Positions 3,772 through 32,000 of a stretch of DNA of 32,000 nucleotides are shown in pieces (position 1 is the first letter of the stretch; every line of letters begins with the position of its first letter). The stretch is from contig NZ_NEGA01000024.1 in the NCBI RefSeq assembly GCF_002135315.1, forward strand, positions 25,736 through 57,735, written 5' to 3'. Origin of the DNA: Acinetobacter sp. ANC 3903 (GTDB lineage Bacteria > Pseudomonadota > Gammaproteobacteria > Pseudomonadales > Moraxellaceae). Under the pieces are notes generated by a model, which saw only the letters and a program-made list of their open reading frames with translations, searched no databases and was not told the origin of the DNA. Both the position numbers and the translations under genes were made by a program.

Positions 3772-3882
3772 CTGTGCATGGATAAAAAGTCAAAATAATA
3801 AATTAAAGACGATAAAATCATTTAATGTGCTTAAACATATACTAATAATTAAATTTATAACTAGAAAAATTAGAGGCATCTT

Positions 3883-4587: not shown

Positions 4588-4602
4588 AATAGGATAGTCT
4601 TC

Positions 4603-6580: not shown

Positions 6581-6644
6581 ATCGCATGTTTAATTAGAAT
6601 GCAATTTTATAATAATTTAAAAATAAACCAGGAAAATATAAAAA

Positions 6645-7148: not shown

Positions 7149-7161
7149 TGGACTGACCTAA

Positions 7162-7200
7162 ATAGTGGCCAACTGCCGTTGGTCACTATGAGTGATTTTT
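7162..7200 (+). terminator. Stem-loop plus T-run after hcp (intra-operon terminator/attenuator candidate)
   Basis: ATAGTGGCCAAC (7162-7173), loop TGCC, then GTTGGTCACTAT (7178-7189). This is a 12-bp stem with one G.U pair, followed by GAGTGATTTTT. Confidence 0.4.
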
Positions 7201-7229
7201 AATTTTCATTATTAAATAATAAAAAAAAC

Positions 7230-7706: not shown

Positions 7707-7717
7707 GTGGGTTTGCT

Positions 7718-10485: not shown

Positions 10486-11900
10486 ATAAACTGATGCTGG
10501 GAACTTTTAGCAGTATTTTTCTATTGCTGAGTATGGTCATTATTTATTACTGGCGTGATATCCAATATGATCCTTCAGCTCTAGATTTAGTCTCATACTT
10601 TTTTGTTCTACCTGTCCTTTTGTCTTTAATTTTGCTTGCGCCATATTTCATTTATCGGGCTTATCGGTTATATATACGGCGTCATGAACAGCAAAATCAA
10701 ACCCTATTAGAACAGCAGCAATTGAATAAAGCTCAGACAGATAAGGAGCCCAAAATTGAAGAGATTAAATGGCTTAATTTAAATGTCTTTTCATCATTTG
10801 CATGTCATGCATTTGGTGAAAATGAAAAAATTATAGAGGGGCTAAAAAATTTTAAAACGCCGAAATTAGATTATAACTTGGCAAATAGTGTTGGTTTACC
10901 TGTTTTGTCATATAGAATTCATCCACTTGATCATGTGGCAGAGCTACAGGAGGATGAGCAGAATAGCGGAGATCAAAAGGGTCGGTTAGCACGTATAAAA
11001 GCTTTAATTCAACAACAATTAGAACAACAAACTGAAATCTTATGGCAAGTGGCTGAACATTTAAAGCAATCTGCATTATTTTATGATAGTGAACTAGCCT
11101 ATCAATATCGGATGCATCCTGCATGGAACAACCCCGATACTACAACCGATGATAAAGATGATCAGGACATTTCAATTGAGCAGGTGCCACGTCTAAATCG
11201 ACTTAACATTCATCTCTTGTTATCAGACAACTTATTACAGGCTTGGGATGAACATTTAACGCAGGAAATAGTGCTTCATTTTATAGAATCGTTGGGAATT
11301 CTTTCGCAGCAAATACATCTGCAGCCTCATTATATTGCCTCGCAAAACGCTTATACATACTGGCTTAAATTATTGGAGCAAATTTCAACCCAAAGTGATG
11401 AAGTTTCATTGCTCATCAATGTGGATTCGGAAATTGACCAAACATTGCTGGATGAAAAAATGTGGCAGATGGATAATTATTTGGCAGCAGAATTTGCATC
11501 CAGCTGGTGTGTGGCGGCGGCAGAGGTGAAGATCAATAACATAGATGCCATCAAGGTGCTTAAAGTTGCCAGCGATGGAGATGATTTATCTATTTGTCTC
11601 AATCAAGTAGTAACTCATCATACAGATCAAATCCAACAAGAACAGCCTTTTGTATTGGTTTTAGATGATGCAACGGATATAAAAAGTATTAAAAAAAATA
11701 ATCAGAGATTTGCACCCGCCTTAATTGAAACCCATCATCTTTTATATACAAAATCAATGCTGGGTCATACACAACATCTGGCAAAGATTTTTGGCTTTAT
11801 GTTGGGTATGCACCTGCCAGAGGAAATAACAATAATGATATACAGTAGCGATCAAGCTTCAACCTATGCTTTTTTTCAAACTAAAATTGTAGAAAATTGA
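10482..11900 (+). CDS. Inner-membrane T6SS-associated protein in the position of Acinetobacter AsaB/TsmK (assignment by synteny)
   Basis: The ATG at 10482 forms an ATGA overlap with the tssG stop, so it is preferred over the track's upstream start at 10455. Two N-terminal TM helices (GTFSSIFLLLSMVIIYYW, LVSYFFVLPVLLSLILLAPYFIY). No family recognised by eye. Confidence 0.7.
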   Translation: MNKLMLGTFSSIFLLLSMVIIYYWRDIQYDPSALDLVSYFFVLPVLLSLILLAPYFIYRAYRLYIRRHEQQNQTLLEQQQLNKAQTDKEPKIEEIKWLNLNVFSSFACHAFGENEKIIEGLKNFKTPKLDYNLANSVGLPVLSYRIHPLDHVAELQEDEQNSGDQKGRLARIKALIQQQLEQQTEILWQVAEHLKQSALFYDSELAYQYRMHPAWNNPDTTTDDKDDQDISIEQVPRLNRLNIHLLLSDNLLQAWDEHLTQEIVLHFIESLGILSQQIHLQPHYIASQNAYTYWLKLLEQISTQSDEVSLLINVDSEIDQTLLDEKMWQMDNYLAAEFASSWCVAAAEVKINNIDAIKVLKVASDGDDLSICLNQVVTHHTDQIQQEQPFVLVLDDATDIKSIKKNNQRFAPALIETHHLLYTKSMLGHTQHLAKIFGFMLGMHLPEEITIMIYSSDQASTYAFFQTKIVEN

Positions 11901-11956
11901 CTTGAAGTACTCACCATTTAAAGATGAATAAAAATAAATAGAATAACGAGAATCAC

Positions 11957-14900
11957 ATGTTTTATACCGTTTTAGCTTATGTCTGGCAATATGTAACCCA
12001 TCCCAAAGCCATTATTGCACTCTCTTTTTTAGTGGCATTGATTTCTTCCTATAACATCATTCCTCGAAATATTTTTTGGGCGCTCGTTGCAACCTATGTT
12101 TTTGCACTTATCGGCTATGGCGTATATCGGCTAATTCAAAAATATCGTCATGCACAACAGGGTGCAGTGCTTGCTGAAGCTATTGAAAATGATACACAAG
12201 CTGAATATGGCAAGCAGAAAGATACGCAAGAATTACAGCTGATGAGTCAGCAAATGAAAGAATCGATCCAGCTGATTCGTAAATCAAAGTTGGGAGATAA
12301 AAAAGGCAATGCAGCACTATATGAATTACCTTGGTATATGGTGATTGGCAATCCAGCTGCAGGTAAAAGTTCGGCAATTTATCATTCAGGGCTGAAATTT
12401 CCCTTTGAGGATTCCCATCAAAAAAGGGTTTCTTCTGGTCTAAGTGGCACTCGAAACTGTGATTGGTTTTTCTCTACCGAAGGGGTGTTACTGGATACTG
12501 CCGGGCGCTACTCAGTTTATGCTGAGGATCATTCTAAATGGTTGGGCTTTTTGAATTTATTAAAGAAAAACCGTACTCGAGCACCGGTTAACGGTTTAAT
12601 TGTGGTGGTCAGCATTGCCGAACTGATCAGCCAAAGCCCCGAGAAATCAATCCAGCTGGCTAAAAATTTAAGAGCGCGCATTCAAGATATTACCGAACGT
12701 TTAGAGATATTTGCACCTGTTTATTTAGTATTTTCCAAAATGGATTTAATCGCAGGATTTACTGAATTTTTTGAATGTTATGACGTCGACGAGTTTGATC
12801 AGGTGTGGGGAGCGACTTTAAAGTACGAGCCAAATTCCGTCCAGAATGTAATGACGATTTTTGAACAGCATTATGCTGTTTTATATGATGGTTTAAAAGG
12901 GCTAAGTACCACGCATCTTAGTCGACGTCATAGCCAGAATATTTCACCCAGTGTGATGACATTTCCTTTAGAGTTCAAAAGTTTAAAACCAGTACTGAAA
13001 ACTTTTATTGGGACTTTATTTGAAGAAAATCCCTATCAGTTTAAACCCGTATTCCGTGGTTTCTATTTTACCAGTGCCTTACAACAAGGTGTAATTGAAA
13101 GTCCAATGACCCAGCAGATTGCACAGGATTTTCATTTATCACAAAACTTAAATAGTGAAAATACTGAACTGGGTAATTCGACTTCACAAAACCATGGCTA
13201 CTTTCTAAAAGGTTTATTTTCAAATGTGATTTTGAAAGACCAAAATCTGGTTAAACAGCATATTAATCCTGTACGTAAGAAACAACGTTACTTAGCCTTT
13301 ATCACTGCCTTATTGGGTATATCCATTGTTTTAAGTTTATGGGTCTGGTCATATCGGAATAATCAGCAATTGATTGCCGATGTGCAATCCGATCTGGACA
13401 AGGTCGTCCAACTGGAAAAGCAATCCGGACAAGAACTCTCTACGCAACTGAATGCCTTGCTGATTTTACAGGAGCGTATGCAGCAGCTTGATCAATTTGA
13501 AGAAACTCAGCCTCTACAGTTTAGCTTTGGACTGTATCAGGGTCATGCGTTGCTAGAAAAATTACAAACTGAATATTTAAAGGGCATTAGACAACTGCTT
13601 TTGCAGCCGACACAACAGAATATTGCACAGTATTTACAACGTATAAAAAGCAACGAAGCCACTTTAAAGGCCAATCATGTTAGTGTTGAAATAAAACAAG
13701 TCGATAAAAATCAGCAATATTTAGAACCATCTGAAAGCAATCCCCAAGATGCTTACAATGCTTTAAAGGCTTACTTAATGCTGAGTAATCCTCAATATAT
13801 GGATTCAAGTCATTTAGGTGATCAGTTGACACGTTTCTGGCGTCCTTGGCTGGATTCAAACCGTGGCCTGATGCCACGTGGTGAAATGATCCAGAAAGCG
13901 GAGCAAATATTATCCTATAGCATCACGCTGGCACATACTCAAAATTTTCCAATCCTTGAAGCAGACGCTTTGCTGGTTGATCAGACCCGTCAGGTTTTAT
14001 TGGCTGTCGTTCGGGGGATGCCTGCACGGGACCGTGTGTATAACGAAATCAAAATGCGTGCCGCAGTGCGTTATCCTGCTGTAACTGTAAAGCAGTTAGT
14101 GGGGGGAAATGGCCAAAATATAGTACTGGGAAGTTATGCCTTACCTGGCATGTTTACTTATAAAGCATGGACTGAATATGTAGAAAAAGCGATTGATGAT
14201 GCCGCAAACCGCCCAATAGATAGCAAAGACTGGGTGTTAAATAGCACTCAATCGGATGATCTCACTTTTAGTGGCAGTTCAGACCAGATTCGTAAGCAAT
14301 TAACAGCACTATATAAGCAGCAATATATCGCTGAGTGGCGTAAATTTTCAAATGGCATTTACTATGCCAAGGCCAGCGATTTTAACCAGCAAACAAAAAA
14401 TATTGATATCTTGGGCGAGCCAGAAAATTCCCCCATTCGTGCCATTATTCAGCATATTGCTCAAGAAACCAGTTGGGATAACCCAGTGCTTCAGGCAGAA
14501 CTGGCTACACCGAAAACTGGTCTCATGGCATGGCTTAAAGCTAAAATTTTAACTCAGGATGAGCCTAAAGCGACGAACCTGGCATCGAATCAGGCACAAA
14601 GAGTCATTTTAAAAGAATTCCAGATGTTCTATCAATTAATTCGTAAACGCGATGATCAGCAAAACAAATCTTTATTAGATGAATATATGCAATCACTTGC
14701 ACAGGTCAGGAGTAAATTTAATGATCTGAAGAGTACCGGGGATATTGGTCCGGCAGCCTTTATTTTAGTCAAGCAAACGATTAATGATCAAAACTCTGTT
14801 TTTAATAATAGCCAAAAAATAATTGATGAAAAAATGACTGTTGGACTGAATGACCCAGATCAGCAAGTTCTGCAAAAATTATTAATGAGTCCCTTAACTC

Positions 14901-15781
14901 AATCCTTTGCCTGCTTATTGATTCCAGCACAGCATGAAATGAATAAATTATGGATGATCCAAGCGAATCAGCCATTTAGCGCTAACTTAAGTCAAAAATA
15001 TCCATTTAACTCTTCTGCAACATTGCAGGCCACTCGCCAAGAAATCAGTCAAATTTTGGGTGAAAATGGCAGTATTGCACGTTTTGTCAAAGACTATCTC
15101 GATCCGCTGGTCATTCGTCGTGGCTATCTATTAACCTCCAAAACCTGGAAAGATTTGGGGATTAGTCTGAATCCACAATTTGTAATGAATTTCCAAAGCT
15201 ATGTGGCCCCCAATAATGGCATGGCAACAGGGGAGTTGAACCAAACAACGGCAATAGCGGCAAGCAATCAATCGAATTTCCAGTTTTATCCTTTAGAAAA
15301 TTCACAACTTCTGTCTTATACCATTGATATTGATGGCCAAAGAATGGTCTATGAAAATGGCATTCAACAATGGGTGAATTTTGTCTGGCCAAATCAAGGC
15401 TCTATTCCGGGTGCACGTATTAGCGCGGTAGATTTGCAAGGACAAATACATACCATCTTGGATGAACCGGGGGAATATGGCATTAATCGCCTGATTGATC
15501 ATGCACAGCGTACACAACGTGGCGATAGTTTTGAGATGATCTGGAAAGATCAACAAAATCCTGAGCTAGCCGTAAAAGTTAATTTCCGTTTGATTAGTGG
15601 TAATTCAGGACGTATTGGTTCGAGTCGTGGGTATGCCGGCATGCAACTGGTTGATCAGGTGGTGAATGATAAATCGGTTCGTGTGGTTGCAGCCCAGACA
15701 GTCCCAACACCTGTAGCAGTGGTTAAAACAAATGCCACTCCTGCATTAGCAAGTATGAATAGTGCTGGAGTTAGCCAATGA
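11957..15781 (+). CDS. tssM: T6SS membrane-complex protein TssM (IcmF-like)
   Basis: 1274 aa. N-terminal TM helices, then P-loop GNPAAGKSS and LLDTAGR, a third TM ([20 protein letters not shown]) and a long periplasmic domain. Confidence 0.95.
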
Positions 15782-15830
15782 TGAATATAAAGCATCTCAT
15801 CCGCACATCAAAAAAAGAGGGAGCATATTC

Positions 15831-16790
15831 ATGCATACCATGAAAACTTTCCCGATTTATTATGGTAAATGTCCCGCACATGGTGATTTTTTGAAAACGC
15901 GAGGGCAGTCCGCTTTAATTCAACTACTAGATCAATGGATTACTGAGGCACTGGAATATGCCATGCAATCAGCTGATTTTGCTACAAACTATAAACAACT
16001 CCCTACGCTGGATTTTTTTATTGCAAATCCACAGGACAGCAGTTTTCTGGTCGCCAATTTAATCAGCAGTGAAGATAGTTCAGGTCGTCAATTTCCGATG
16101 TTGCTGAGTCATTTATTAGAAGTTGATTCGCCCGGTGATAATATTTTGTACGCACCCTTGCGTTATAAGCAGACTTTAATTGATTTATTGCAAAAGAATA
16201 GGGAATTACAGTCGCTCAGTGAGCCTGATCTTCTACCTGATAAACTGGAAAAATTAAGCAATGAAATTGAAGTGCTTACACGTAATGAAAGTGCTGAGTT
16301 TTATCAAGATCATACTATCCATTCATTTGCACAATTAATGAGTTTAAGTGCCAATGAGCTGGCTCAAAATATGATCGGTTTGGGATTATTGTTGCAGCCC
16401 GTGATTCAACAAGGAACGGCGCAGATCAAAAAAGTCCTGATTTTACCTATCAATAACACCAATTATAGCCATGAAATAGCCGCTTTTTGGGTCAATTTGA
16501 TCAGTTATTTTGTTTCAAAACAAAATGTAGAATTATGGACGGGAATTTTGCATCTGAAGCAACCCGTGCTGCTGTTTGGTTTCCAAGGTGCCGATATTAT
16601 TGCATTAAGCGAGATATTCAATCAAAAAATGGATTCCGGGCATTGGGTTTCACTGCTTCAAGCCAACTGGATTGATCCTTATTTAGAACAAAATGCAGGA
16701 CTTGCTGCTTTAGAACAAGTTTTAAGTGAGCGCCAACTAAGTCTTATACAAAGTATGAAACTGTTTAAACAAACCTTTATTAATGAATAA
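15831..16790 (+). CDS. tagF: T6SS-associated regulator TagF (DUF2094-type)
   Basis: The ATG at 15831 with AGAGGGA RBS (15817-15823) is preferred over the track start at 15762. The N-terminal [13 protein letters not shown] is the TagF signature. Directly follows tssM. Confidence 0.8.
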
Positions 16791-16796
16791 AATATT

Positions 16797-17558
16797 ATGA
16801 AAAAACAATATATTAAAATTATTATGCAGATCTTTTTTTTAATTTTCAGCTTATCTATAGTGACCCATGCCGAGCCGATTGTCATTGAGGGGGCGGTGCC
16901 CAATGAAGCCAGTAAACAAGAGATTTTAAATAAAATGTACACGACTTATGGGCAAGAGAATGTCATCGATAGACTTCAAGTCCGTGCTGTTACTGCTCCT
17001 AATGGTTGGAGCGGTGCTGTGAGTAATGTCATTACCGATGACTTAAAGAAAGTAAAACAAGGCAAACTAACCGTACGTGGTACGCAGGTGGATTTATCCG
17101 GAAAAATGAGCGATGAAAAGGATCTTCAGCCGACAACTACAAAATTTCACAGTCTTGTAGCAGCTCCTTATCGTTTAAATGCACAATTATCCGTAAACCA
17201 AGCTGAGCAACAAATGATTGATGCCACATTAAAGCATCGTATTATTGAATTTGAATCTGGAAGTGCTGTGTTAACTGCATCAGGCACACAAATTTTAGAT
17301 GAAATGGCGGTAGCATTGAATAAAGTCAGCGGTAAAAAAGTGAAGGTGATTGGCCACACGGATAGCTCTGGTGATGCAAATAAAAACCTGACTTTAAGCC
17401 AGCAGCGTGCAACTATAGTGAAAAATTATTTAATTGGGAAAAATATTGCAGCTGTAAATTTAACTGCAGAAGGTTTCGGTTCGAATCAACCTGTTGCTGA
17501 TAATACCACTGTAGAGGGTCGCAGAAAAAACCGTCGTATTGAGTTTCAAGTTCAATAA
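16797..17558 (+). CDS. OmpA-family peptidoglycan-binding protein (TagN-like)
   Basis: 253 aa. Signal peptide, then C-terminal OmpA_C motif (IEFESGSA...GHTDSSGDANKNLTLSQQRA...GRRKNRRIEF). Last gene of the plus-strand T6SS operon. Confidence 0.85.
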   Translation: MKKQYIKIIMQIFFLIFSLSIVTHAEPIVIEGAVPNEASKQEILNKMYTTYGQENVIDRLQVRAVTAPNGWSGAVSNVITDDLKKVKQGKLTVRGTQVDLSGKMSDEKDLQPTTTKFHSLVAAPYRLNAQLSVNQAEQQMIDATLKHRIIEFESGSAVLTASGTQILDEMAVALNKVSGKKVKVIGHTDSSGDANKNLTLSQQRATIVKNYLIGKNIAAVNLTAEGFGSNQPVADNTTVEGRRKNRRIEFQVQ

Positions 17559-22623: not shown

Positions 22624-23101
22624 TTGATATAAAGCCTTATGCGTTAATGATGTGGCTGAATATATATAATTGCAAGTAAGAAGAAGGTACTTAAACCAAT
22701 CGTTTTCAACAGAATATAGATGAGTGTAAAATTATATATTATTGATATGTAAATATAAATTAATTAATTTTGATATCTGTGATATGTAATAGTGGTTAAA
22801 ATAAATACACATTTTGTAGCGATTCAACGAAGCAAATTTTTATTGCGCAAATTTCTCACTGGAATCCGAAAAAATTAATGGAATAAGAAGCAACTCAATA
22901 GAACATTTCTAATAAGTCACGTTAAGGGAGAATAATACTGTTGGGTAAGTAACAACTCTAATTTTAATATTTAGATAACTTGCAGACTATGAAAAGATGA
23001 CATACCTAATGACACTTAATTATTTTGATCTAAATTTACTAAGATTGAATAATTATTGCCAAACAATCATTTTTGAATCATTGACGTCCGTAAACAGAGT
23101 A

Positions 23102-24074
23102 ACCCCAATCCTGTTTAAGCCAATGATTCCATAATCTGAATGATTGGCTTATTTCGATGGATTAATTGGTATGCACATACCGAAGCATAAATCCCACTTA
23201 AAAAGCCCGAAATACTACGAGCTTTACTTGTTACTAAATTGTATTGTCCTTTCAATAGGCTGAATAACGTTTCTATTTTATTGCGCTGTTTTAAGTGATA
23301 TTCATCAGATTTTGGTAGTTGAACAGACTTCATATTCTTTCGATGATAGGTAATCAAATCAATACCTTGATCTCTTAATCTGCTTTTTAATTCTTGGCTG
23401 ATATAGCCACGATCTCCATAGAGCTTCGCTTGTAAACCTGTAACTAACTGCTCAACCATTTTAATGTCAGCAATATGCCCATTGGATAATGCTGAGCTAA
23501 TGATCTCGCCAAATTGATTCATCACGATATGTAATTTACAGCCATAAAACCACCCCATCGAGCTTTTACCGCGAGATGCGATCTTGGCTAATGATTTATG
23601 GCGTTGGATGCGTTGATTTTTACAGACAGGTAGAGTCGTTGAGTCAATCCATAAATATTGTTTGTATTGATCTTTCATCAGAGCGACATGTAGAGCGTGT
23701 AGTGCCAATTGATGCCTATTAATCAGGTGAATCATGCGATGGTAACAGGGCAAGCTTTTAAATAAATGACTTTTATCCTGTTTCAACCATGAGAAGAATG
23801 CTTTGAAATTGTTGAAGTGAGAACACTTATACCAAATGGCGATAAAGGTGATTTCAGAGATACTCAGTTGTGCTTTTCGGATTCTTAAGCAGTGATTGCT
23901 TTGCTTTAGAAATTTCCAATAAGTTGCTTCAAATTTAAGAAAGAAATCATCAATTACACAGAATAATTCGGTACTATTGAACATAAGGACTAGAGTTGTG
24001 AGTTTGGTGTGGTAACTCAACTGATGGCTCTAGTCCTCCCGTTTTTCAAGTTAAGTCTTATCCGCGATTCGGGT
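23102..24074 (-). mobile_element. IS982-family insertion sequence (ISAba4/ISAba9/ISAba825-like), about 973 bp, apparently intact
   Basis: Imperfect terminal inverted repeats: ACCCCAATCCTGTTTAAGCC (23102->) versus ACCCGAATCGCGGATAAGAC (reverse complement of 24074<-), about 14/20 matches. Flanked by the direct repeat AGAGTA at 23096-23101 and 24075-24080. Single DDE transposase ORF. Confidence 0.85.
23115..23984 (-). CDS. IS982-family DDE transposase
   Basis: Probable start is MFNSTELFCVIDDFF (ATG at 23984; the track extends to 23115..24020). Family-typical blocks: LWIDSTTLPVCKNQRI, WFYGCKLHIVMN, LYGDRGYIS, YHRKNM...RNKIETLFSLLK. Confidence 0.88.
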   Translation of the reverse strand: MFNSTELFCVIDDFFLKFEATYWKFLKQSNHCLRIRKAQLSISEITFIAIWYKCSHFNNFKAFFSWLKQDKSHLFKSLPCYHRMIHLINRHQLALHALHVALMKDQYKQYLWIDSTTLPVCKNQRIQRHKSLAKIASRGKSSMGWFYGCKLHIVMNQFGEIISSALSNGHIADIKMVEQLVTGLQAKLYGDRGYISQELKSRLRDQGIDLITYHRKNMKSVQLPKSDEYHLKQRNKIETLFSLLKGQYNLVTSKARSISGFLSGIYASVCAYQLIHRNKPIIQIMESLA

Positions 24075-24141
24075 AGAGTAACAAGTTTAGTTAAATGAGT
24101 AACGTATAGCGAACATGCTTTATATAAATTACATAGTTAGC

Positions 24142-24169
24142 ATTTCGTATAATATATATTATGTTAAAT
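24142..24169 (+). other. dif site (XerC arm ATTTCGTATAA, central TATATA, XerD arm TTATGTTAAAT); left junction (attL) of the integrated phage array
   Basis: 28-bp match to the gammaproteobacterial dif layout. The XerD arm is identical to E. coli dif (TTATGTTAAAT) and the XerC arm equals the Acinetobacter dif/pdif XerC consensus. Repeat identity with the second site starts at 24157. Confidence 0.85.
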
Positions 24170-24213
24170 AAGATATCCGAGATTGCGCCCTACATAACTC
24201 AGCCGTTGGCGCA

Positions 24214-24259
24214 ACTTCACTGGAGAGATTCACCAACATATTAATCTCTCCAGTGAAGT
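24214..24259. other. Perfect 17-bp inverted repeat hairpin (candidate packaging signal or minus-strand origin); second copy at 25717-25762
   Basis: ACTTCACTGGAGAGATT (24214-24230), a 12-nt loop, then AATCTCTCCAGTGAAGT (24243-24259). It is preceded by a 7-bp stem, TTGCGCC (24183-24189) paired with GGCGCAA (24208-24214). Confidence 0.6.
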
Positions 24260-24301
24260 ATCTTAATGAACATAATATACGTTATGCCGAAATCCGTGAG
24301 C

Positions 24302-24332
24302 TTTGGAAGTTTATATTTTTATTTTGGAAGTT
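24302..24332. repeat. Two 10-bp direct repeats TTTGGAAGTT spaced 21 bp apart (iteron-like); second copy at 25805-25835
   Basis: TTTGGAAGTT at 24302-24311 and at 24323-24332, inside the 415-bp repeat. Confidence 0.5.
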
Positions 24333-24543
24333 AATTTATAAACGTCCAATTCATTTTACTAAGCAACTCACCTACGGATCACAAAGCAGCTAATAGGATG
24401 ACATTACAAGCCTAACAATTCAGGAAAAAATAAATACGCCAATCCATAGAATAAAAATGGCTGCAATGCCAATAAAAGCAATGCAAAAATTAAAGCCTTC
24501 AAATTGATATTTTTTAACATAAAAGCCCTATTTTGATTCAAAT

Positions 24544-24690
24544 TTAGTCAATCGTAACCCGCATGTTATAAATGGGGGTGGAAAAATCAGTCAGGAGACT
24601 CGATTCAGGACTGAAGAAGTGTTGATTTAGGGTACTTTCCCCCGTGTTTTCACGGGTAATGGTGCTTTTTTGATCATTCTTATTTTTCAT
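24544..24690 (-). pseudogene. Truncated Rep: first 42 codons of the phage replication initiator fused to intergenic sequence (48-aa stub)
   Basis: 24572-24690 is identical to 31882-32000. Translation is MKNKNDQKSTITRENTGESTLNQHFFSPESSLLTDFSTPIYN then MRVTID*. Confidence 0.85.
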
Positions 24691-24890
24691 GATTAACCCC
24701 AATTAAAACAAACTGAATAGCCAGAGATAAAACCTAAAACAACACCAAGAGCATATGAAGCTAAATGTAGACCTGACATGTAATCACCCCAAACAACGAG
24801 TTAAATGGAATGAAATAAGACCTTTGAACATGATTGAATGACAACGAGGACATTCAGCAAGGTCGATTTGATGAACTGCATTAATTCGCA

Positions 24891-25139
24891 TTAGCAATCC
24901 CCCATTTCTTCTTTTAATTCAGCATTTGTTTTCTTATAGAGATCTGCATAAGCATCAATGTATGAATAGTCATAAGCCATTTCACTTGCAACAAGCGCCA
25001 AGTGTTCTAAGCACTGCTCTGTAGAGAAAGCAGGTACAAAGTTCTCTAAAGCGCATTGACCATGTTGAGAAACCAGTTCAGCAACTCGGTTAAAGGCTGC
25101 TTGGGTGAAATCTTGAGGACTCTTATAATTTAGTTCCAT
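24891..25139 (-). CDS. Phage hypothetical protein (82 aa), first gene of the leftward (replication) operon
   Basis: ORF upstream of rep' on the same strand and divergent from the 68-aa ORF. No family recognised. Confidence 0.5.
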   Translation of the reverse strand: MELNYKSPQDFTQAAFNRVAELVSQHGQCALENFVPAFSTEQCLEHLALVASEMAYDYSYIDAYADLYKKTNAELKEEMGDC

Positions 25140-25202
25140 GTAACAACATCACATGCAATGATTTTGACGAAACATAACACAATTACACGTAACAATACAA
25201 CA

Positions 25203-25225
25203 TGTGACAAAATAATATTGTCACA
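25203..25225. promoter_or_regulatory. Operator-like perfect palindrome TGTGACAA-AATAATA-TTGTCACA in the divergent promoter region
   Basis: 8-bp arms separated by 7 bp. It lies 24 bp upstream of the 68-aa ORF start, in the 109-bp gap between divergent ORFs. Confidence 0.5.
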
Positions 25226-25248
25226 AGAAACATTGTTGAGTTACTTAA

Positions 25249-25455
25249 ATGAGAAAATCTGATCTTTCAAAAACTTATAGAGTTCGCGGAGAATTTACAG
25301 ACAAGATCAAAAGCTTATCGTTAGATTTCATTATCGAAACTAAAGAAAGAATAGAAGAAGCGGATATCGTTAATGCTTTGCTTTACAAGCACTTAAACGA
25401 ATTAAAGGCAAAAGATGTAACTAAATATATAGAGGAAATAAAAAAAGCGGATTAA
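25249..25455 (+). CDS. Small phage regulator candidate (68 aa), divergent from the replication operon (repressor position)
   Basis: Only plus-strand gene of the module. Charged and helical, followed by an intrinsic terminator. The function is inferred from its position, analogous to rstR in CTXphi-type phages. Confidence 0.5.
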   Translation: MRKSDLSKTYRVRGEFTDKIKSLSLDFIIETKERIEEADIVNALLYKHLNELKAKDVTKYIEEIKKAD

Positions 25456-25490
25456 TTTGATTTTCATGGATATTGAGTACTGAACAAAAA

Positions 25491-25516
25491 GGGCCTTTTA
25501 TAGGCCCTTCTCTTTT
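25491..25516 (+). terminator. Intrinsic terminator after the 68-aa ORF
   Basis: GGGCC-TTTTATA-GGCCC hairpin followed by TTCTCTTTT. Confidence 0.6.
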
Positions 25517-25642
25517 GATACATTTTGCCAATCATAAAAAATAGTGAAAAACATTAAGTTATTGTTTTTTATAAATTACGTTTAGCTAGGGAAAAGCTCT
25601 CCGGTTTAACTCGATGTGTAATAAAATGCCAAGCTCTGACGA

Positions 25643-25672
25643 ATGTCGCATAACGTAACTATTATGTTAAAT
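25643..25672 (+). other. dif-like phage attP / tandem junction: ATGTCGCATAA - CGTAACTA - TTATGTTAAAT
   Basis: The XerD arm is identical to the one at 24159-24169. A good XerC-like arm (9/11 to ATTTCGTATAA; TCGCATAA as in E. coli dif) is found only if the central region is 8 bp. Confidence 0.6.
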
Positions 25673-26074
25673 AAGATATCCGAGATTGCGCCCTACATAA
25701 CTCAGCCGTTGGCGCAACTTCACTGGAGAGATTCACCAACATATTAATCTCTCCAGTGAAGTATCTTAATGAACATAATATACGTTATGCCGAAATCCGT
25801 GAGCTTTGGAAGTTTATATTTTTATTTTGGAAGTTAATTTATAAACGTCCAATTCATTTTACTAAGCAACTCACCTACGGATCACAAAGCAGCTAATAGG
25901 ATGACATTACAAGCCTAACAATTCAGGAAAAAATAAATACGCCAATCCATAGAATAAAAATGGCTGCAATGCCAATAAAAGCAATGCAAAAATTAAAGCC
26001 TTCAAATTGATATTTTTTAACATAAAAGCCCTATTTTGATTCAAATTTAGTCAATCGTAACCCGCATGTTATAA
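25660..26074. repeat. 415-bp direct repeat, copy 2
   Basis: Identical to 24157-24571. Confidence 0.95.
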
Positions 26075-26078
26075 GCCG

Positions 26079-26279
26079 CTATAATCTGCCAATCGTATGA
26101 TCCAACTTAATAAAAAGTACCTTTAATTGATCAATCTCTCGAGATAAATCATCATTCGATAACTGTATGTTTTCTAAATGTTTTTCTAAACATTCACGGA
26201 TAAAAATATAATCTTCTTTAAGTAAAACTCCCTTATTTCTATTGTAGCCAACTGTTCTATATAGATGTCTATTAATCAT
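26079..26279 (-). CDS. Phage accessory hypothetical protein (66 aa)
   Basis: ORF between zot and the intergenic region, divergent from the 87-aa ORF. No family recognised. Confidence 0.4.
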   Translation of the reverse strand: MINRHLYRTVGYNRNKGVLLKEDYIFIRECLEKHLENIQLSNDDLSREIDQLKVLFIKLDHTIGRL

Positions 26280-26320
26280 TCAGTGTAAAATCCGATTTTT
26301 ATCACATACTTAGATTAACC

Positions 26321-26584
26321 ATGCTAGAAAATCTATTTAATAAAAACAGATATATTTCAAACACCAATCTACTGTATAAAATTGCCAAAGATGCGTTACT
26401 TGAAAAGCATGTCATTAAACGCGGAAATCAAATTTTAGTATATGAAATCAGCAGCTTAAGACAGAAAGGAAAATTCATCAAAAGTCTGGAAATCAATAAA
26501 TTACCTATCACATTAAAATCAAAAAAATCAATCAAATATGCAAAAGTACCTAAACGTTCAGAAATCATTAAAGATTTTATTTAA
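26321..26584 (+). CDS. Phage accessory hypothetical protein (87 aa, very basic)
   Basis: Only plus-strand ORF within the structural half of the phage. Lys-rich. Followed by a GGGCG-GAACA-CGCCC hairpin at 26592-26606. Confidence 0.45.
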   Translation: MLENLFNKNRYISNTNLLYKIAKDALLEKHVIKRGNQILVYEISSLRQKGKFIKSLEINKLPITLKSKKSIKYAKVPKRSEIIKDFI

Positions 26585-26647
26585 TCAGTTCGGGCGGAAC
26601 ACGCCCTCTGTTATGCCCTATTAGATTCATTCTCCCGGATTTTGTAA

Positions 26648-28039
26648 TCAGAGAGAAGATGTTTCAGTATTTTGATTTTCCGGTTCACTCGTAGACACTC
26701 GCTCTGTAGATTGTTGATTAGAGTGTGATTGATTTGTTGAAGAATTACCCTGAGCAAAATAATTAAATGGTCTGTAACCATCTAACCACCTTCTACAATC
26801 CTTTTCAGACACTGAGAGCATATAGTTACCCTGCTGATCCACAGCAACAAGCTTACCACTGGAGAGCTTTATCACACCTGACATTCTAGGAAAGTCATTT
26901 GGATTTACTTCCTCAGGCACATATTCAAAATCATAAGGTTTTGAAGGATCATAAACATACTTCTTAACCTCTCCAGCTGAAGAAACCGATAAGCCACCTT
27001 TTGAAATATCATCAAACCATTTTGTGCATTCAGGTGTTTCAATATTTACAGCTTTTCTACAGATATTAGATAAATCTTGAATCTGCTGTTGTTGGGGTTG
27101 CTGTTGTGTCTGAGCCTTAGTCTGTTGTGGAGAAGCCGAAGACGTTGAAACAGTTTCAGCTTGAGCAGAATTCTTAAAGAATCCAAATTCAGAGGAATAA
27201 GCTCGATAGCCAGAATAAACAATTAAACAAAGAAAAAGTAAAACTGGGATTTTCAAACCCCAAGGCAATGAAGCTTTAGCTGTATGCTGTTCTGCTGAAA
27301 TGTAATACTTAAAAAGCCGTTTAGGGAAAAACCATATTTTCCAAGAAAGAGCATTTTTACGAGTAGCATTACCGAAACTATCCTGAATCTCAGAATAACT
27401 ATAAATAATCGCCAACTGCATCTTAAAAAGACGACGAAGAATTAAATGCTCAGAGGTTGCAGCCTTAACAAAGGAATTTAAAAGGTCAGGCTTTTGAGTA
27501 ACAAGAACAATGTCAAAGCCAAAATGACGATGCATAGTTAAAGCACGGCCAATATCTAAAATATCCTCTTTAGCTCTCTCAAGTGCTACCTTTTGAAGAT
27601 TGCGAACATTTTGAATTAACTGTTCTTGTTCTTTAACCTTTAAAGATAAAGGCAATTCTGTATAAACAAAACCATGCTTATTTAAAAGATCAATTTTTAA
27701 AGGAGTTGGAAGATTTGCATAATCTAGAATTTTAGTAACTTGATTATTATAGAGTTCATTAATATATCGAGGTAACTGATAATTTTTAAGCAAATCAGTC
27801 TTAGAAAAAGCTGGGTGTTCATGGGCTTCATCAAAAACAATTAAAGAACCATCTGGAAGATCTCGCCAGTCAAAAGGATTATTTGTTGAAGATGTAATAG
27901 GCAAAACACCTGGAATATTAATTCCAATGATGTTTGTAAAAATCATACGGTTAGGATTTTTTCTAACCGTTGTTTCTAATAGTTCAACACACCAAAGTGA
28001 CTTACCTGATCCAGGTGGTGCTGATATGGCTGTAAGCAT
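26648..28039 (-). CDS. Zot-like / pI-type filamentous phage assembly ATPase
   Basis: 463 aa. N-terminal P-loop ISAPPGSGKS and Walker B LIVFDEAHE. Central TM helix (IPVLLFLCLIVYSGY) and a Q-rich linker. AAGGGG RBS. Confidence 0.9.
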   Translation of the reverse strand: MLTAISAPPGSGKSLWCVELLETTVRKNPNRMIFTNIIGINIPGVLPITSSTNNPFDWRDLPDGSLIVFDEAHEHPAFSKTDLLKNYQLPRYINELYNNQVTKILDYANLPTPLKIDLLNKHGFVYTELPLSLKVKEQEQLIQNVRNLQKVALERAKEDILDIGRALTMHRHFGFDIVLVTQKPDLLNSFVKAATSEHLILRRLFKMQLAIIYSYSEIQDSFGNATRKNALSWKIWFFPKRLFKYYISAEQHTAKASLPWGLKIPVLLFLCLIVYSGYRAYSSEFGFFKNSAQAETVSTSSASPQQTKAQTQQQPQQQQIQDLSNICRKAVNIETPECTKWFDDISKGGLSVSSAGEVKKYVYDPSKPYDFEYVPEEVNPNDFPRMSGVIKLSSGKLVAVDQQGNYMLSVSEKDCRRWLDGYRPFNYFAQGNSSTNQSHSNQQSTERVSTSEPENQNTETSSL

Positions 28040-28136
28040 TTTATACCCCTTTTGTTCGATCTCCCCACGCGCACACTAAGCAGGAATCACAGGCTCATCC
28101 CGCCCAGCGCGCGCGCATAGCGATCCCACAAATGTG

Positions 28137-28415
28137 TTAAGACTTCCCTACCCAAATACGCGCACACTTGATAAATATGACAAGCTGTATCGTGGATAGA
28201 ATCATTGATAAACATAGGTCAAGCGTTAAAAGCTTAGAGAATGAAAGTGCAAGTTCAGGAAGATTATCTAAGGAATTTTGAGCTTCAATAATTAATCCAT
28301 CTAAAATATCTTTGACCCAGTTATAAGTAACTAAAGTCAGACCCGCACCCATAAGAATACGAGCAATAACACTAGAAATTAATGAAGTTAAAACAAGGGC
28401 CAACAACTTAGACAT
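28137..28415 (-). CDS. pVI-like minor coat/membrane protein
   Basis: 92 aa, strongly hydrophobic with several TM segments. Located between the pIII-like and pI-like genes, as in Ff-type and other inoviruses. Its start is 1 nt after the pIII-like stop. Confidence 0.65.
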   Translation of the reverse strand: MSKLLALVLTSLISSVIARILMGAGLTLVTYNWVKDILDGLIIEAQNSLDNLPELALSFSKLLTLDLCLSMILSTIQLVIFIKCARIWVGKS

Positions 28416-28416
28416 A

Positions 28417-29727
28417 TCAGACCCTCAATAAAATAAAGCCGCAGAAAACTAAAGTCATAAGCTGAAAAACATATTTAAGAGGCTCAATCGTGTTACAGAT
28501 CGGCTGCATTTGAACGGCTTTATTTACTTGAATACCGAAAGGCAAATCTTGTACATCAAATATAATATCAGCAGGACACGCCCTAACATTGGCTGTAATA
28601 AGATCTTTTTTAATTTCCTGTTTATCAAGCTCTTTTTCCGGAACATCAATAGGTTCAGGGGTTTCTGGAGGCTCTTTAGTCCAATCAAACCATTCCTTAA
28701 CTTTTGTAAAGAAAGATTCATTTTGTTTTAAATCAGTTTTTTGATTTTCTTTAATTTCTATGTTGTCTTGTTTTTGAACTTTAAAAAAATCACAAACAGA
28801 AGGTGCCCAAGTACAAAAATTAGGTAAAGTAAATTTACTACCTGCATCTGGTTTTGATGGATCATAAGTATCCGGTATACCATCACCATTTGTATCAGAA
28901 TTGGGATTTGGCGTTGTAGAACCATTAGGCTCAGTGCCAGGTTGAGGAGTAGCAGAATCTAAAGCAGCAGCTGTTTTTGCTTTTGGAGCACTTTCAGGGA
29001 TAGGACTATTTGGATCGTAAATATCAGTAATAACAGAAGGCAATGGAGACTTATTTTGACCTTCACCTAAAATTTCATTACCGAGTTCTGTATCAGACAA
29101 AAGTTCATACTCTTTAGGCTTAGGAGCATAAAGTGGGTTTGGCTCACTATAAATATCTTGATAAGTATTATTGCCATATTTAATATTATAGCCAAAACAT
29201 CTCATTGATTTTGCGCCAGTAATCGTACAAGAAGTAAATTTAATTTTATTATTAACATTACCAAACTGACTATTATTTAAATCAGATGAAAATTTAGTTA
29301 AAGCACCAGGACAATCAGAAACGGTATAACAAGTAACTGAAAAACCATTATTTGAAAGAATATAACGATTGGAATATTGAGTAGGATCAGCAGGATCTAC
29401 AGGCTTTTCTCTTTTAATAACTTGAGAACCCTCATCAATAAGCCAGCCCAAACCCTCAAGCATTACAGTAACAGATGTAAAAGCGGCAACACCAAAAATA
29501 CCAGCCCTAGCAGCAGAACCCAATTCAGAAGCAGCAACAGGCACACGAGCTTTATAAATAGGATCATTTGCAGCAGTAGCACCAACTTTTCGTGCAGTTA
29601 ATTCAACATTTTTAGAAGCTGAATCATAGACTTTTTCTACAATTTCCCACTTTTCAGCGGCACCTGCATATAATTCAGTAATAGAGAAAAGAAACAAAAA
29701 GGATAATAAAATAGAAATTCTCATCAT
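28417..29727 (-). CDS. pIII-like adsorption/minor coat protein
   Basis: 436 aa. Signal peptide MMRISILLSFLFLFSITELYAGA. Pro/Thr/Gly/Asn/Asp-rich linker (TPQPGTEPNGSTTPNPNSDTNGDGIPDTYDPSKPDAG). C-terminal membrane anchor LMTLVFCGFILLRV. Confidence 0.75.
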   Translation of the reverse strand: MMRISILLSFLFLFSITELYAGAAEKWEIVEKVYDSASKNVELTARKVGATAANDPIYKARVPVAASELGSAARAGIFGVAAFTSVTVMLEGLGWLIDEGSQVIKREKPVDPADPTQYSNRYILSNNGFSVTCYTVSDCPGALTKFSSDLNNSQFGNVNNKIKFTSCTITGAKSMRCFGYNIKYGNNTYQDIYSEPNPLYAPKPKEYELLSDTELGNEILGEGQNKSPLPSVITDIYDPNSPIPESAPKAKTAAALDSATPQPGTEPNGSTTPNPNSDTNGDGIPDTYDPSKPDAGSKFTLPNFCTWAPSVCDFFKVQKQDNIEIKENQKTDLKQNESFFTKVKEWFDWTKEPPETPEPIDVPEKELDKQEIKKDLITANVRACPADIIFDVQDLPFGIQVNKAVQMQPICNTIEPLKYVFQLMTLVFCGFILLRV

Positions 29728-29828
29728 TTTAAAATCCTATAGAGAGCGACGCAGATCACGACGAGAATGAAATAATTTAAAAAAGACTCAACTGACATGA
29801 TCTGCACCTAAAACACTTATGGAAAGGA

Positions 29829-30107
29829 TTATTTCTTTTTAATTACAGAAACAACCAAACCAAAAATAACGATACCCACAACAATAGTAAGCACCCAAAT
29901 ACCAGTAGAACTTAGAACTTCTTCACCACCCGCAGCCGTAGTTGCTGTTGTGACATCAGCAGCTTTAATAAAAGCGTTAGAAGAAGTTGAAACAGCTAGA
30001 GCGATAGTCGCACCAGCAGCAGCACCCATTTTGTATTTGAAACGCTGAAACCATGATTTTTCATGAATCTCTTGAGTTTCAATTTTTTCTACATTTTGTA
30101 ATCCCAT
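29829..30107 (-). CDS. pVIII-like major coat protein precursor
   Basis: Strong RBS AAGGAG 7 nt upstream of the ATG at 30107. Internal hydrophobic leader ending ...STSSNAF. The predicted mature part has an acidic/Thr-Ala-rich N-terminus, hydrophobic core IWVLTIVVGIVIFGLVV and basic tail SVIKKK. Confidence 0.75.
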   Translation of the reverse strand: MGLQNVEKIETQEIHEKSWFQRFKYKMGAAAGATIALAVSTSSNAFIKAADVTTATTAAGGEEVLSSTGIWVLTIVVGIVIFGLVVSVIKKK

Positions 30108-30130
30108 AGGATTCTCCTTTTTAAGTTAAG

Positions 30131-30316
30131 TTAGCGTGCTTTTTTTACTATCTGGAGAACACGCGTAATTATGAAAACTCCAGCAAACATTTTTAGAACA
30201 TACTTAATGAGTTCATCTCTGGCCTCATCAGTAAGTTCTGGAAGAAATGGAGTGAAAAGAACCCACTGATCACACGCCTGAGTTGCAGCATTAACGACTT
30301 CACAAACGTATGCCAT
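30131..30316 (-). CDS. Small phage protein (61 aa) with hydrophobic C-terminal segment
   Basis: Lies between the pV-like and pVIII-like genes, where inoviruses encode small virion or assembly proteins. The overlapping track ORF 30193..30399 is rejected. Confidence 0.5.
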   Translation of the reverse strand: MAYVCEVVNAATQACDQWVLFTPFLPELTDEARDELIKYVLKMFAGVFIITRVLQIVKKAR

Positions 30317-30328
30317 TTCTTAAAATCC

Positions 30329-30631
30329 TTAACTAGCTGACTTTGGCTGAACCTTTTCAGGCACCAAATCAACAAGAAGTGTTTTTGAATCAACGCCATT
30401 GTTTACGACATTAAAGATCGCTCTAGCTTTAAATGGCGGTTCAAATTTTTCAATGAGGTCATAATTCGAAGAAAGCCCCCAAGTGTATTGAGTGCTGACA
30501 ATGCCCTTAGAACGCTCACCAGATTGCATATCAGTTTCAATATAGACCTTGGTTGAATCGTAAGGCTTTCCGTTCATTTCACCCTTAGAGGCTTTAAAAG
30601 CGGTAACTACAACATCAGATTGCATTAGCAT
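30329..30631 (-). CDS. pV-like ssDNA-binding protein
   Basis: Lies immediately downstream of rep. Start chosen at ATG 30631 (AGGA 8 nt upstream); the track extends to 30664. NGKPYDS and the C-terminal LVDLVPEK resemble the f1 gene V blocks QGKPYS and LRLVPAK. Confidence 0.6.
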   Translation of the reverse strand: MLMQSDVVVTAFKASKGEMNGKPYDSTKVYIETDMQSGERSKGIVSTQYTWGLSSNYDLIEKFEPPFKARAIFNVVNNGVDSKTLLVDLVPEKVQPKSAS

Positions 30632-32000
30632 GAGTAAATTCCTTATATGAGGAGTTATTGACACCAGCCACGCCTACAAATAAAGGCATTTCATCGAGAG
30701 AACTTGTTGGTTTACAAGCATCAAGCGAAGATTTAATTGGCTGTTTTAAACGGATTGACTGCATCACAGCAGCATGAGAAAACTTGAGACGCTTCGGCAC
30801 TTCATCTTTTGGGGATGAAAGCATTGCGATTAATGCATCAGACTCAATAACTTTTGAGTATTGACGGATATATTTTCCGAATTGTTCACGGACAATTTCG
30901 ATTGAACAATCCCAGTTAATTTGAGACGTTTTTTTAACAACTTGAGTCTTTTCAGGCGTTACAAAGTCTTTTTCTAATTGCTTGGCAAGCCATTCAAAAC
31001 AAGGATATGCACCCAAAAAGTACTGTGAAGGAGACAGCAGAATATCAAGCGGAATATAACGATCCTTAGATTTAAACTCGACTTCTGCACGTGTCCAAGG
31101 ACTTAAAGGACTGCCCTCCTTTTTGCCACGTTCATAGAAACGGCAATACTTGCCACTAGTACGATCACCAACACAGAATGAACGACCCTTACCATTTGGA
31201 CGCTTCCAAGCACCCGGCTTTTCAATTTTCGGAGCACGACCACCACACCAGAAACCGTCAAGATCATCCCAGTGATCGGCAATATCTACAGATATATACT
31301 TGCCTTCAAAGTCATCATAAGCCAAGTCACAGCGGGTAATTTTTGGATTAACACAACCCTTAACTATTTCAATGCCAGTTGAAGAATCAAAGAAACGCTC
31401 ATAAGAAGTAAGCCATTTGTATAAACGGAGCTGCCAGCCTTTACGGGCCAAAGCACAGCCCGAACCGTTGATTTGTACAGATATTTTCTTAGAGCTATGG
31501 CCGTAAAGCACCATGCCGAGCATGTCTTGAAGTTCATATGCAAACTTGTAGTTATGCATACCACGATCACGTTTTTTTTCTAAGCCAAAGCCAAAAATCT
31601 CATAAAGATGGTGATCTAAGAAAGTTTCAATGCCGTAGGTTAATGAAGATTCGGCATTATCAGGATCAATAGAAAAATATTCTTTGCCTAGGGTAGATTG
31701 GCAAAAGCTAAAAGTTAGCCAGTCATGTGAAGCAATACCGTATTCATCACAAGGAACTGAATGCAGAATTGGCACATTGCCCTTTTCTGTTAGAACCATT
31801 TTTACGTTGTCGAGCTTCCGCGGGAAGGTGAACTCATCGCACTTCAGGCGAGGATCAACTGCCGTAACCCCCATATTATAAATGGGGGTGGAAAAATCAG
31901 TCAGGAGACTCGATTCAGGACTGAAGAAGTGTTGATTTAGGGTACTTTCCCCCGTGTTTTCACGGGTAATGGTGCTTTTTTGATCATTCTTATTTTTCAT
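30615..32000 (-). CDS. Rolling-circle replication initiation protein (filamentous-phage pII / replication-initiation-factor type)
   Basis: 461 aa. Blocks RCDLAYDDFEG and CRFYERGKKEG...WTRAEVEFKSKD resemble Rep_trans-type initiators. First gene of the phage operon. Its ATG is the last triplet of the window (31998-32000); the duplicated copy at 24690 shows an in-frame TAA 5 codons upstream. Confidence 0.8.
   Translation of the reverse strand: MKNKNDQKSTITRENTGESTLNQHFFSPESSLLTDFSTPIYNMGVTAVDPRLKCDEFTFPRKLDNVKMVLTEKGNVPILHSVPCDEYGIASHDWLTFSFCQSTLGKEYFSIDPDNAESSLTYGIETFLDHHLYEIFGFGLEKKRDRGMHNYKFAYELQDMLGMVLYGHSSKKISVQINGSGCALARKGWQLRLYKWLTSYERFFDSSTGIEIVKGCVNPKITRCDLAYDDFEGKYISVDIADHWDDLDGFWCGGRAPKIEKPGAWKRPNGKGRSFCVGDRTSGKYCRFYERGKKEGSPLSPWTRAEVEFKSKDRYIPLDILLSPSQYFLGAYPCFEWLAKQLEKDFVTPEKTQVVKKTSQINWDCSIEIVREQFGKYIRQYSKVIESDALIAMLSSPKDEVPKRLKFSHAAVMQSIRLKQPIKSSLDACKPTSSLDEMPLFVGVAGVNNSSYKEFTHANAI
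31867..31889 (-). other. Perfect 8-bp stem / 7-nt loop hairpin inside rep codons 38-45 (candidate plus-strand origin or nick site)
   Basis: ACCCCCAT-ATTATAA-ATGGGGGT. The mini-element deletion junction maps to the loop hexamer TTATAA. Confidence 0.5.

Follow-up and report, generated by a model that had tools for sequence, protein, structure and literature searches.

A hairpin within the rep gene of a filamentous Acinetobacter prophage as a candidate plus-strand origin, and its relation to mini-elements at dif

The window, i.e. the whole stretch of 32,000 nucleotides of Acinetobacter sp. ANC 3903 DNA which was analysed, carries filamentous-phage DNA from about position 24140 up to its end. The major genes, all of which are located on the minus strand, follow each other in the order rep, PHROG 4994 gene, coat-like gene, TspB/pIII-like gene, pVI-like gene, Zot/pI gene and orf66. 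The element is a CTXphi-like Acinetobacter filamentous prophage (inovirus) which encodes an initiator of the Rep_trans family and resides at the chromosomal dif site with a mini-element in tandem. In phage direction the array consists of the full phage (7310 nt), an attP junction, the mini-element (1503 bp), dif and the chromosome. We focus on a hairpin within the coding sequence of rep, which appears to be maintained as nucleic acid, and on a core sequence at which rep-derived and intergenic DNA are joined in the mini-element. The features concerned are listed below, phage sense denoting the minus strand of the window.

30615..32000, minus strand: rep, open reading frame (ORF) of 461 aa encoding the Rep_trans rolling-circle initiator; the window stops at the rep ATG
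31867..31889, minus strand: rep-internal hairpin, in phage sense ACCCCCAT / TTATAAT / ATGGGGGT, codons 38-45 (TPIYNMGV)
31875..31881, minus strand: hairpin loop, TTATAAT in phage sense, putative cleavage and joining zone
31863..31881, minus strand: 19-nt core, rep copy
26036..26081, minus strand: candidate intergenic Rep-site island, TAGCGGC TTATAACATGCGGGTTACG ATTGACTAAATTTGAATCAA, holding the core at 26056-26074 directly after the orf66 stop codon
24553..24579, minus strand: hybrid core made of the rep 5' arm and the intergenic 3' arm, an imperfect hairpin with one C.C mismatch
24572..24691, minus strand: rep', duplicating the initial 120 nt of rep
24572..31881, minus strand: full phage unit of 7310 nt, delimited by the repeat spacing from rep core to hybrid core and by gene content
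24157..25659, minus strand: mini-element unit of 1503 bp, delimited by the repeat spacing of 1503 and comprising the intergenic block (ORF45, attP), orf68, orf82, rep' and the hybrid core

The hairpin within rep

By profile threshold as well as by motifs, the initiator is a member of the Rep_trans family. It scores 67.9 bits against Pfam Rep_trans PF02486 (cut-off 29.6) over residues 220-372 and matches PHROG 453 'replication initiation protein' at 8e-91. Its segment RFYERGKKE aligns with RFYEKNVQ of RepSTK1 (PDB 4CIJ), which gives the catalytic-tyrosine motif RFYE(K/R), while R223-x-D225 and W302-x-R304-x-E306 are unchanged across 16 homologues; the motifs listed for Rep_trans proteins are a YxKxxE-like catalytic tyrosine, RxD and WxRxE (PMC5714925). 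The nearest homologues of Rep are found in Acinetobacter.

On the plus strand of the window the hairpin reads ACCCCCAT/ATTATAA/ATGGGGGT and is formed by a perfect stem of 8 bp and a loop of 7 nt, exactly as an earlier note on this DNA had claimed for 31867-31889. Folded as single-stranded DNA (ssDNA) it reaches -7.4 kcal/mol (z = -2.3). The whole rep site occupies codons 38-46 of the ORF, and the encoded peptide (S)TPIYNMGV represents a conserved island within an N-terminal region of Rep which is otherwise hypervariable and rich in indels. The annotated Rep of P0033 (A. qingfengensis) begins with MGVT, i.e. at the ATG within the 3' arm of the hairpin; this start may have been mis-called or may hint at a dispensable N-terminal region of Rep.

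For comparison 92 related loci were collected; a scan of genome contigs with Rep yielded three loci. The hairpin is present at the same position of rep in all loci which retain the 5' end of the gene, including relatives whose Rep proteins share only 33-39% identity. In these distant relatives it takes the form CCCCCAT-TAATAAC-ATGGGGG, with the variants CGCCAT/ATGGCG and CCCAC/GTGGG, and further compensated stems are AACCCCAT/ATGGGGTT, CCCCCGT/ACGGGGG and ACCCCT/AGGGGT. Several of the compensatory pairs alter the amino acids encoded by both arms (Thr to Asn together with Val to Leu; Ile to Val together with Met to Thr), and another one combines a silent change of Pro with an exchange of Met for Ile. 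A covariation test of 42 distinct sequences found 89% of the cells paired and two-sided changes at six of the eight stem pairs, the covariation score amounting to 0.121 compared to 0.048 after shuffling (none of 500 shuffles scored as high). When, as a control, the 3' partner was slid by one to three columns, pairing dropped to only 42-56%.

Codon usage points in the same direction. Among 100 conserved degenerate codon columns of 51 non-redundant rep genes, that of Gly44 is the only one in which a single codon is used throughout. Counts for the core codons were made in 35 Acinetobacter-type rep genes, with the remainder of the same genes serving as background:

Gly44: GGG in 35/35 cores; 7% of the Gly codons elsewhere in rep
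Pro39: CCC in 28/35 cores; 4% of the Pro codons elsewhere in rep
Thr46: ACG in 24/24 cores; 11% of the Thr codons elsewhere in rep
Thr38: ACC in 31/31 cores; 21% of the Thr codons elsewhere in rep

Wherever Pro39 is encoded by CCT (six cases), the opposite arm carries a compensating ATA. Because of its fixed position, the compensatory changes, the covariation and the use of rare codons we conclude that, as judged from these comparisons, selection acts on the rep hairpin as nucleic acid, over and above the demands of the protein. Conservation in excess of the amino-acid demand had been proposed in the earlier note as a check of the hairpin, and the covariation in six of eight pairs together with the fixed rare codons bears it out.

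The same note had pointed to a second hairpin, CCCGTG-TTTT-CACGGG, close to the 5' end of rep, which we find at that place:

31951..31966, minus strand: second hairpin, CCCGTG AAAA CACGGG in phage sense, codons TRENTG, at the rep 5' end

This hairpin is partly conserved, with some compensation in Acinetobacter lineages (CCTGT/ACAGG in locus L015, GTGT/ACAC in L024), and is missing from L027 and from the distant relatives. It may be an auxiliary element of an origin.

The intergenic site, the mini-element and their junctions

The core pattern CGTAACCCSCATRTTATAA has three exact matches on the plus strand of the window, at 24553, 26056 and 31863, which are the three places where the core had been reported before. 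Not one of 100 shuffled sequences contained a match, even with two mismatches tolerated, and none is expected by chance. The two copies outside rep belong to direct repeats of 415 bp (24157-24571 and 25660-26074) which are identical at 415/415 positions and whose identity ends sharply on both sides. The segment 24553-24690 matches 31863-32000 at 136/138 positions, the sole differences being the polymorphic core positions 24561 and 24565. In phage sense the three cores read as follows:

rep core: ...CCACCCCCAT TTATAA T ATG G GGGTTACGGCAG
intergenic core: ...TAGCGGC TTATAA C ATG C GGGTTACGATTGAC
mini-element core: ...CCACCCCCAT TTATAA C ATG C GGGTTACGATTGAC

The core of the mini-element thus combines the 5' flank of the rep core with the 3' side of the intergenic core, and the join therefore falls within the common TTATAA. 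This composition agrees with what had been read from the window in the earlier note. Its further description of the junction as a deletion crossover holds with regard to the position in the loop; a simple deletion in place does not fit, since the mini-element is a separate unit of 1503 bp standing in tandem at dif.

Around the intergenic core about 45 nt are conserved in an otherwise diverged spacer (20 distinct loci) behind the orf66 homologue, the final gene on the morphogenesis side, with the consensus TAGCnnnY-TATAAY-ATGCGGGTWRCGATnnACnAAA..CAA. This second-site form, TAGCnnnY-TATAAY-ATGCGGGTWACGAT..., has its loop and 3' arm in common with the rep hairpin. The window's own copy possesses no GC hairpin and no stable fold (z = +0.44). 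Only some lineages of the clade possess the intergenic site; in the other Acinetobacter lineages and in every distant relative the rep hairpin stands alone. Where lineages devoid of the intergenic core were searched for a second site, the best match was no better than chance. The core is also found in free phage contigs which contain no mini-element. A reading of the island as a promoter with TTGACT as -35 element was discarded, as inspection by eye revealed no -10 element at workable spacing. Two distant relatives possess a partial core, AG[GC]AATACGGGGGCTGA, some 160 nt upstream of their rep hairpin (L072, 1378-1394; L073, 1223-1239); it may represent another type of second site. Upstream of rep in L030 there is a direct repeat of 458 bp (54-511 and 920-1377; 99.8% identity, period 866 bp).

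Hybrid cores, in which the rep 5' arm is followed by the intergenic 3' side ATGCGGG, occur in the window, in L002, L024, L027 and L056 and in L082-L092; sorted by their flanks they fall into about seven groups. In every case the junction is situated 5' of the G/C position, and the lineages combined confine the join to TT/A/T/A/A/Y of the loop. The earlier note had named breakpoints of related mini-elements elsewhere as what would speak for random recombination; in these groups all hybrids cross in the loop. The longest block of identity in window-type cores is the 8-9-nt GGGTTACG(A), and yet the crossover lies in the 6-nt loop block in all five window-type hybrids, among which at least three distinct arms are represented. 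No join inside the 8-nt 3' identity block (GGGTWACG) was found in IMG/VR, and in a metagenome scan which permitted either base at the G/C position 3/3 matches were of the loop type. From the block lengths we roughly estimate the chance of the observed junction positions under a uniform microhomology model to be ~0.01. The reciprocal junction (intergenic 5' side with rep 3' side) gave no match, which is uninformative as such a circle would lack attP.

The sequence of rep' is almost that of the rep next to it (identity of 100% in the window, 97.8% in L002 and 99.6% in L024), while rep' sequences of different lineages share only ~81%. This near-identity suggests separate local origins, i.e. that mini-elements were formed locally and repeatedly. 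In L002 scaffold gaps adjoin the mini-element, and the order of elements in this locus was not used. In L027 (326-346) and L056 (10083-10103) the rep' arm derives from another Rep lineage than that of the adjoining full phage. Mini-elements thus also appear, from such sequence relationships, to move horizontally between helpers in the manner of satellites.

As coding sequences the mini-element of the window contains only the 45-aa ORF45, orf68, orf82 and rep', and no structural genes. The two named small genes and the sites connected with integration are:

25249..25455, plus strand: orf68 (PHROG 5219), divergent small gene in the regulatory module
24891..25139, minus strand: orf82 (PHROG 20873), small gene upstream of rep and rep'
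25625..25810, minus strand: attP region with two inverted dif-like half-sites; its right-hand part is repeated at 24157-24307
24140..24167, plus strand: dif-type site ATTTCGTATAA TATATA TTATGTTAAAT at the junction of chromosome and mini-element

In L002, too, rep has a homologue of orf82 upstream of it. The 43 initial rep codons contained in rep' are read through the junction into a peptide of 49 aa which ends ...TPIYNMRVTID*. Within 24544-24702 the start is intact, so that this predicted N-terminal Rep peptide, which stops six codons beyond the junction, could be expressed.

The attP is of the CTXphi type and the prophage is integrated at the chromosomal dif site. The dif site of the window is identical to that of Acinetobacter baylyi ADP1 (sequence listed in PMC2731167) at 25 of 28 positions, and the left boundaries of the repeats (24157 and 25660) fall inside dif-like sites. 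As ssDNA the attP region forms a long hairpin (-48.2 kcal/mol, z = -10.5) in which ATTTCGGCATAACGTATATTATGTTCATT pairs with the inverted dif-like site; between the dif-like sites lies a perfect 17-bp hairpin (24214-24259 and 25717-25762).

A proposed mechanism and its alternatives

On balance we favour, with some reservation, an explanation in which the ancestral plus-strand origin is the rep hairpin, the intergenic core provides Rep with a second site in certain lineages, and cleavage and joining by Rep between both sites generates the mini-elements. Rep would nick the rep hairpin in its loop TTATAAT, as Rep proteins of the pT181 family do at a hairpin inside rep. The intergenic site, which is devoid of a hairpin and provides the same loop and 3' arm, would serve as a further substrate. 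During rolling-circle synthesis Rep would cleave one site and rejoin at the other, thereby releasing the arc of 1.5 kb as a circle. Besides the intergenic region with attP, this arc comprises the small regulatory genes and 43 codons from the start of rep. This circle would carry the hybrid core with the 5' arm from rep and the 3' arm from the intergenic site, and would enter dif through its folded attP. Initiation at the rep hairpin (31881) followed by termination at the hybrid core (24572) would, in the resulting tandem array, restore the complete phage circle of 7310 nt. If so, the mini-element could play the role which RS1 or a second prophage has for CTXphi. The proposal of the earlier note that a rolling-circle Rep initiates at one site and terminates at another is supported by the conservation of the hairpin, the junctions in the loop and the assignment to Rep_trans; the cutting as such is the part which is deduced from the sequence. 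We follow the inovirus convention in assigning the nick to the coding strand, as the junction itself is silent on the strand.

Several points weigh against this explanation. We infer both the cutting by Rep and the exact position of the nick from sequence. A genome circle with two direct sites, both of full activity, would be split constantly, so that at least one of the sites must be attenuated. Because of the horizontal spread seen in L027 and L056, the count of independent junction events is uncertain. One lineage (L009, L010 and L090) has a G.T pair in the stem, which RNA would tolerate better than DNA. In pT181 the Rep-binding ICRIII is centred 23 bp downstream of the nick (PMC4797284), and inspection by eye revealed no convincing ICRIII-like inverted repeat downstream of the rep hairpin. 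It is the intergenic site which possesses a conserved downstream block of its own (~25 nt); this block could be a Rep-binding locus, and the intergenic site might then be the initiating origin in those lineages. Finally, in L025, which is of an A. baumannii-type lineage, the intergenic site (6800-6840) forms a perfect 7-bp hairpin, CCCGCAT-CCTATAAT-ATGCGGG.

The L025 hairpin is origin-like and differs from the rep hairpin by a C:G to G:C swap. We also considered it as a decayed rep'; what lies upstream of it, an orf66-like gene and a terminator-like repeat, lends this no support.

The alternative which survives best reverses the roles of both sites, although we regard it as rather unlikely. 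According to it, the intergenic site is, in the lineages possessing it, the working plus-strand origin, as in textbook inoviruses, and the rep hairpin a secondary Rep site, either terminator-like or an autoregulatory operator; mini-elements would then arise when synthesis from the intergenic origin stops early at the rep hairpin 1.5 kb downstream. The downstream block, conserved 3' of the core in 20 diverged loci, is placed like ICRIII of pT181 and is kept in every hybrid, and the origin of CTXphi is likewise intergenic. Moreover, the mini-elements beside heterologous phages in L027 and L056 must replicate from a hybrid core with the intergenic 3' side. In contrast, the rep hairpin is the only such site in several Acinetobacter lineages and in the relatives sharing 33-39% Rep identity, and must therefore be able to act as sole origin. 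In addition, Rep_trans proteins initiate on duplex DNA at an extruded hairpin, which the intergenic site of the window does not form.

An origin of the joins without any contribution of Rep is improbable. Both cores would in this case be conserved for unrelated reasons, for instance that in rep as messenger RNA (mRNA) structure for translation and the intergenic one as promoter or operator, and the mini-element would result from RecA-independent slippage or short-homology deletion between direct repeats matching at 17/19 nt in a tandem prophage. Direct repeats of this length are known substrates of slipped-strand deletion, the G.U-type stem pair is tolerated in one lineage, and the missing reciprocal junction is equally expected since the excised circle would have no attP. 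Yet the window-type hybrids cross without exception in the 6-nt loop block, and no crossing was found in the longer GGGTTACG(A). The part in common is exactly the loop and the 3' arm, which is what a Rep_trans protein would need for termination, and a role confined to mRNA leaves the near-identical copy in a non-coding spacer unexplained.

That the hairpin is an accident of the conserved peptide TPIYNMGV, and the triple core a consequence of the duplication behind the mini-element, is hardly credible: the peptide is indeed conserved and two of the three core copies of the window belong to the 415-bp repeat, but the core is fixed on rare codons, the amino acids encoded by both arms change in concert through compensation, and the intergenic core exists in free phage contigs with no mini-element.

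Genomic setting and relation to known systems

The chromosomal part of the window precedes the array and contains two features in its vicinity:

850-17558: type VI secretion system (T6SS) cluster (ClpV, TssB, TssC, Hcp, TssF, TssG, TssM, TagF), complete-looking, bacterial chromosome
23115-24020: insertion sequence (IS)-type DDE transposase gene (DDE_Tnp_1_3) on the chromosomal side of the array

The T6SS cluster comes within ~7 kb of the dif site and the DDE_Tnp_1_3 gene within ~120 bp of it. The genes which follow the T6SS, an amidase, a GntR-aminotransferase regulator and this IS transposase, are likewise chromosomal. Related free contigs are 6.2-8.6 kb long. No annotated phage in GenBank matches 24100-32000 at the DNA level (megablast), and 23000-32000 gave no Rfam match above the gathering score.

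It is established that origins may lie inside rep (pT181-type plasmids, phiX174, P2), that CTXphi and RS1 form arrays and that Ff phages give rise to miniphages. In pT181 rep harbours the origin, and the protein can do without the amino acids encoded by this segment (PMC5703833), which agrees with the analogy drawn in the earlier note, the hairpin described here lying in codons 38-45. Within the pT181 family the nick occurs in a hairpin loop, and termination follows after replication has proceeded 10-12 nt past the nick (PMC4797284). The pT181/pC221 plasmids (ICRII/IR-II in repC/repD) have in common with the present phage a PF02486 initiator, a hairpin in the 5' coding part of rep where amino acids are poorly constrained, and a GC-rich stem with an AT-rich loop presenting the nick site, which here is a putative one. 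The loop and 3' arm of pT181, CTCT/AATAGCCGG, resemble TTAT/AATATGGGG of the present hairpin. Unlike pT181, a plasmid of Gram-positive bacteria, the present element is a filamentous phage of a Gram-negative host with a related second site and no evident ICRIII-like repeat.

With CTXphi and RS1 the prophage shares the Rep_trans initiator, integration at dif via a folded ssDNA attP of two inverted dif-like sites, the tandem array and a small satellite-like neighbour without structural genes. The Rep_trans protein RstA of CTXphi nicks the apical loop of a hairpin, and virion DNA is produced from tandem arrays (PMC4439123). The plus-strand origin of CTXphi is, however, intergenic, located next to the repressor gene rstR, and comprises 167 bp with several hairpins, whereas here the universal candidate lies inside rep and the intergenic site upstream of attP. 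Like RS1, the 1503-bp unit has no structural genes and sits beside a helper prophage at dif. RS1 encodes complete rstA, rstB and rstC; the mini-element retains 43 codons of rep, possesses, with rep cut to a 49-aa peptide, no functional initiator of its own and no identified counterpart of the antirepressor gene rstC, and displays a visible join product at the loop of the origin. Since synthesis from the rep hairpin to the hybrid core would regenerate the 7310-nt circle, it could serve in an RS1-like manner.

In f1, separated initiator and terminator halves of the origin release the intervening DNA as mini circles (PMC10334589). The miniphages and split-origin mini-phagemids of Ff (f1/M13) resemble the present case in that sub-genomic circles keep the intergenic region and that initiation takes place at one copy of the origin and termination at another, partial one; the composition of the mini-element is compatible with that of an Ff-type miniphage. 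Ff phages differ by their HUH-type gene II protein, their intergenic origin and the fact that the miniphages are defective-interfering products of the laboratory. Compared to them, the second site described here is natural and conserved, and its products are integrated, recurrent and partly spread horizontally. Deletions at Rep nick sites of M13 and pC194 were reportedly described by Michel and Ehrlich. The origins of phiX174 and P2 are situated within the initiator gene, gene A in both cases; these initiators are unrelated HUH proteins, such a GC hairpin is absent and the life styles are lytic or otherwise different. Neither a rep-internal origin in filamentous phages nor integrated mini-elements generated through a conserved second Rep site turned up in the literature searched. 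One paper on A. baumannii filamentous phages mentions prophages flanked by replication/regulation modules and offers no explanation.

In filamentous phages the plus-strand origin is usually sought in intergenic DNA. The present data place a candidate inside rep for a clade of Rep_trans inoviruses from Acinetobacter and more distant hosts, and thereby tie the arrangement in these phages to that of pT181-type plasmids. For annotation they provide a signature, namely a GC stem whose loop reads T(T/A)ATAA(T/C), located some 40 codons from the start of rep. They also suggest a testable route by which small satellite-like elements beside dif-integrated phages may arise (compare RS1 and CTXphi), i.e. 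cleavage and rejoining by Rep between the origin and a conserved second site.

It is tentatively conceivable, moreover, that selection maintains the intergenic site as a programmed 'split origin' which spins off a circle with attP, immunity/regulatory genes and a hybrid origin. In that case the phage, or a selfish module of 1.5 kb inside it, would make its own satellite, and this clade of filamentous phages would possess a built-in generator of such elements. A single prophage would yield no virion DNA because CTX-type integration is irreversible; the self-made adjoining mini-element would provide the second origin copy from which rolling-circle virion DNA could be produced from the chromosome. 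Such mini-elements could, in addition, spread to other helpers as satellites.

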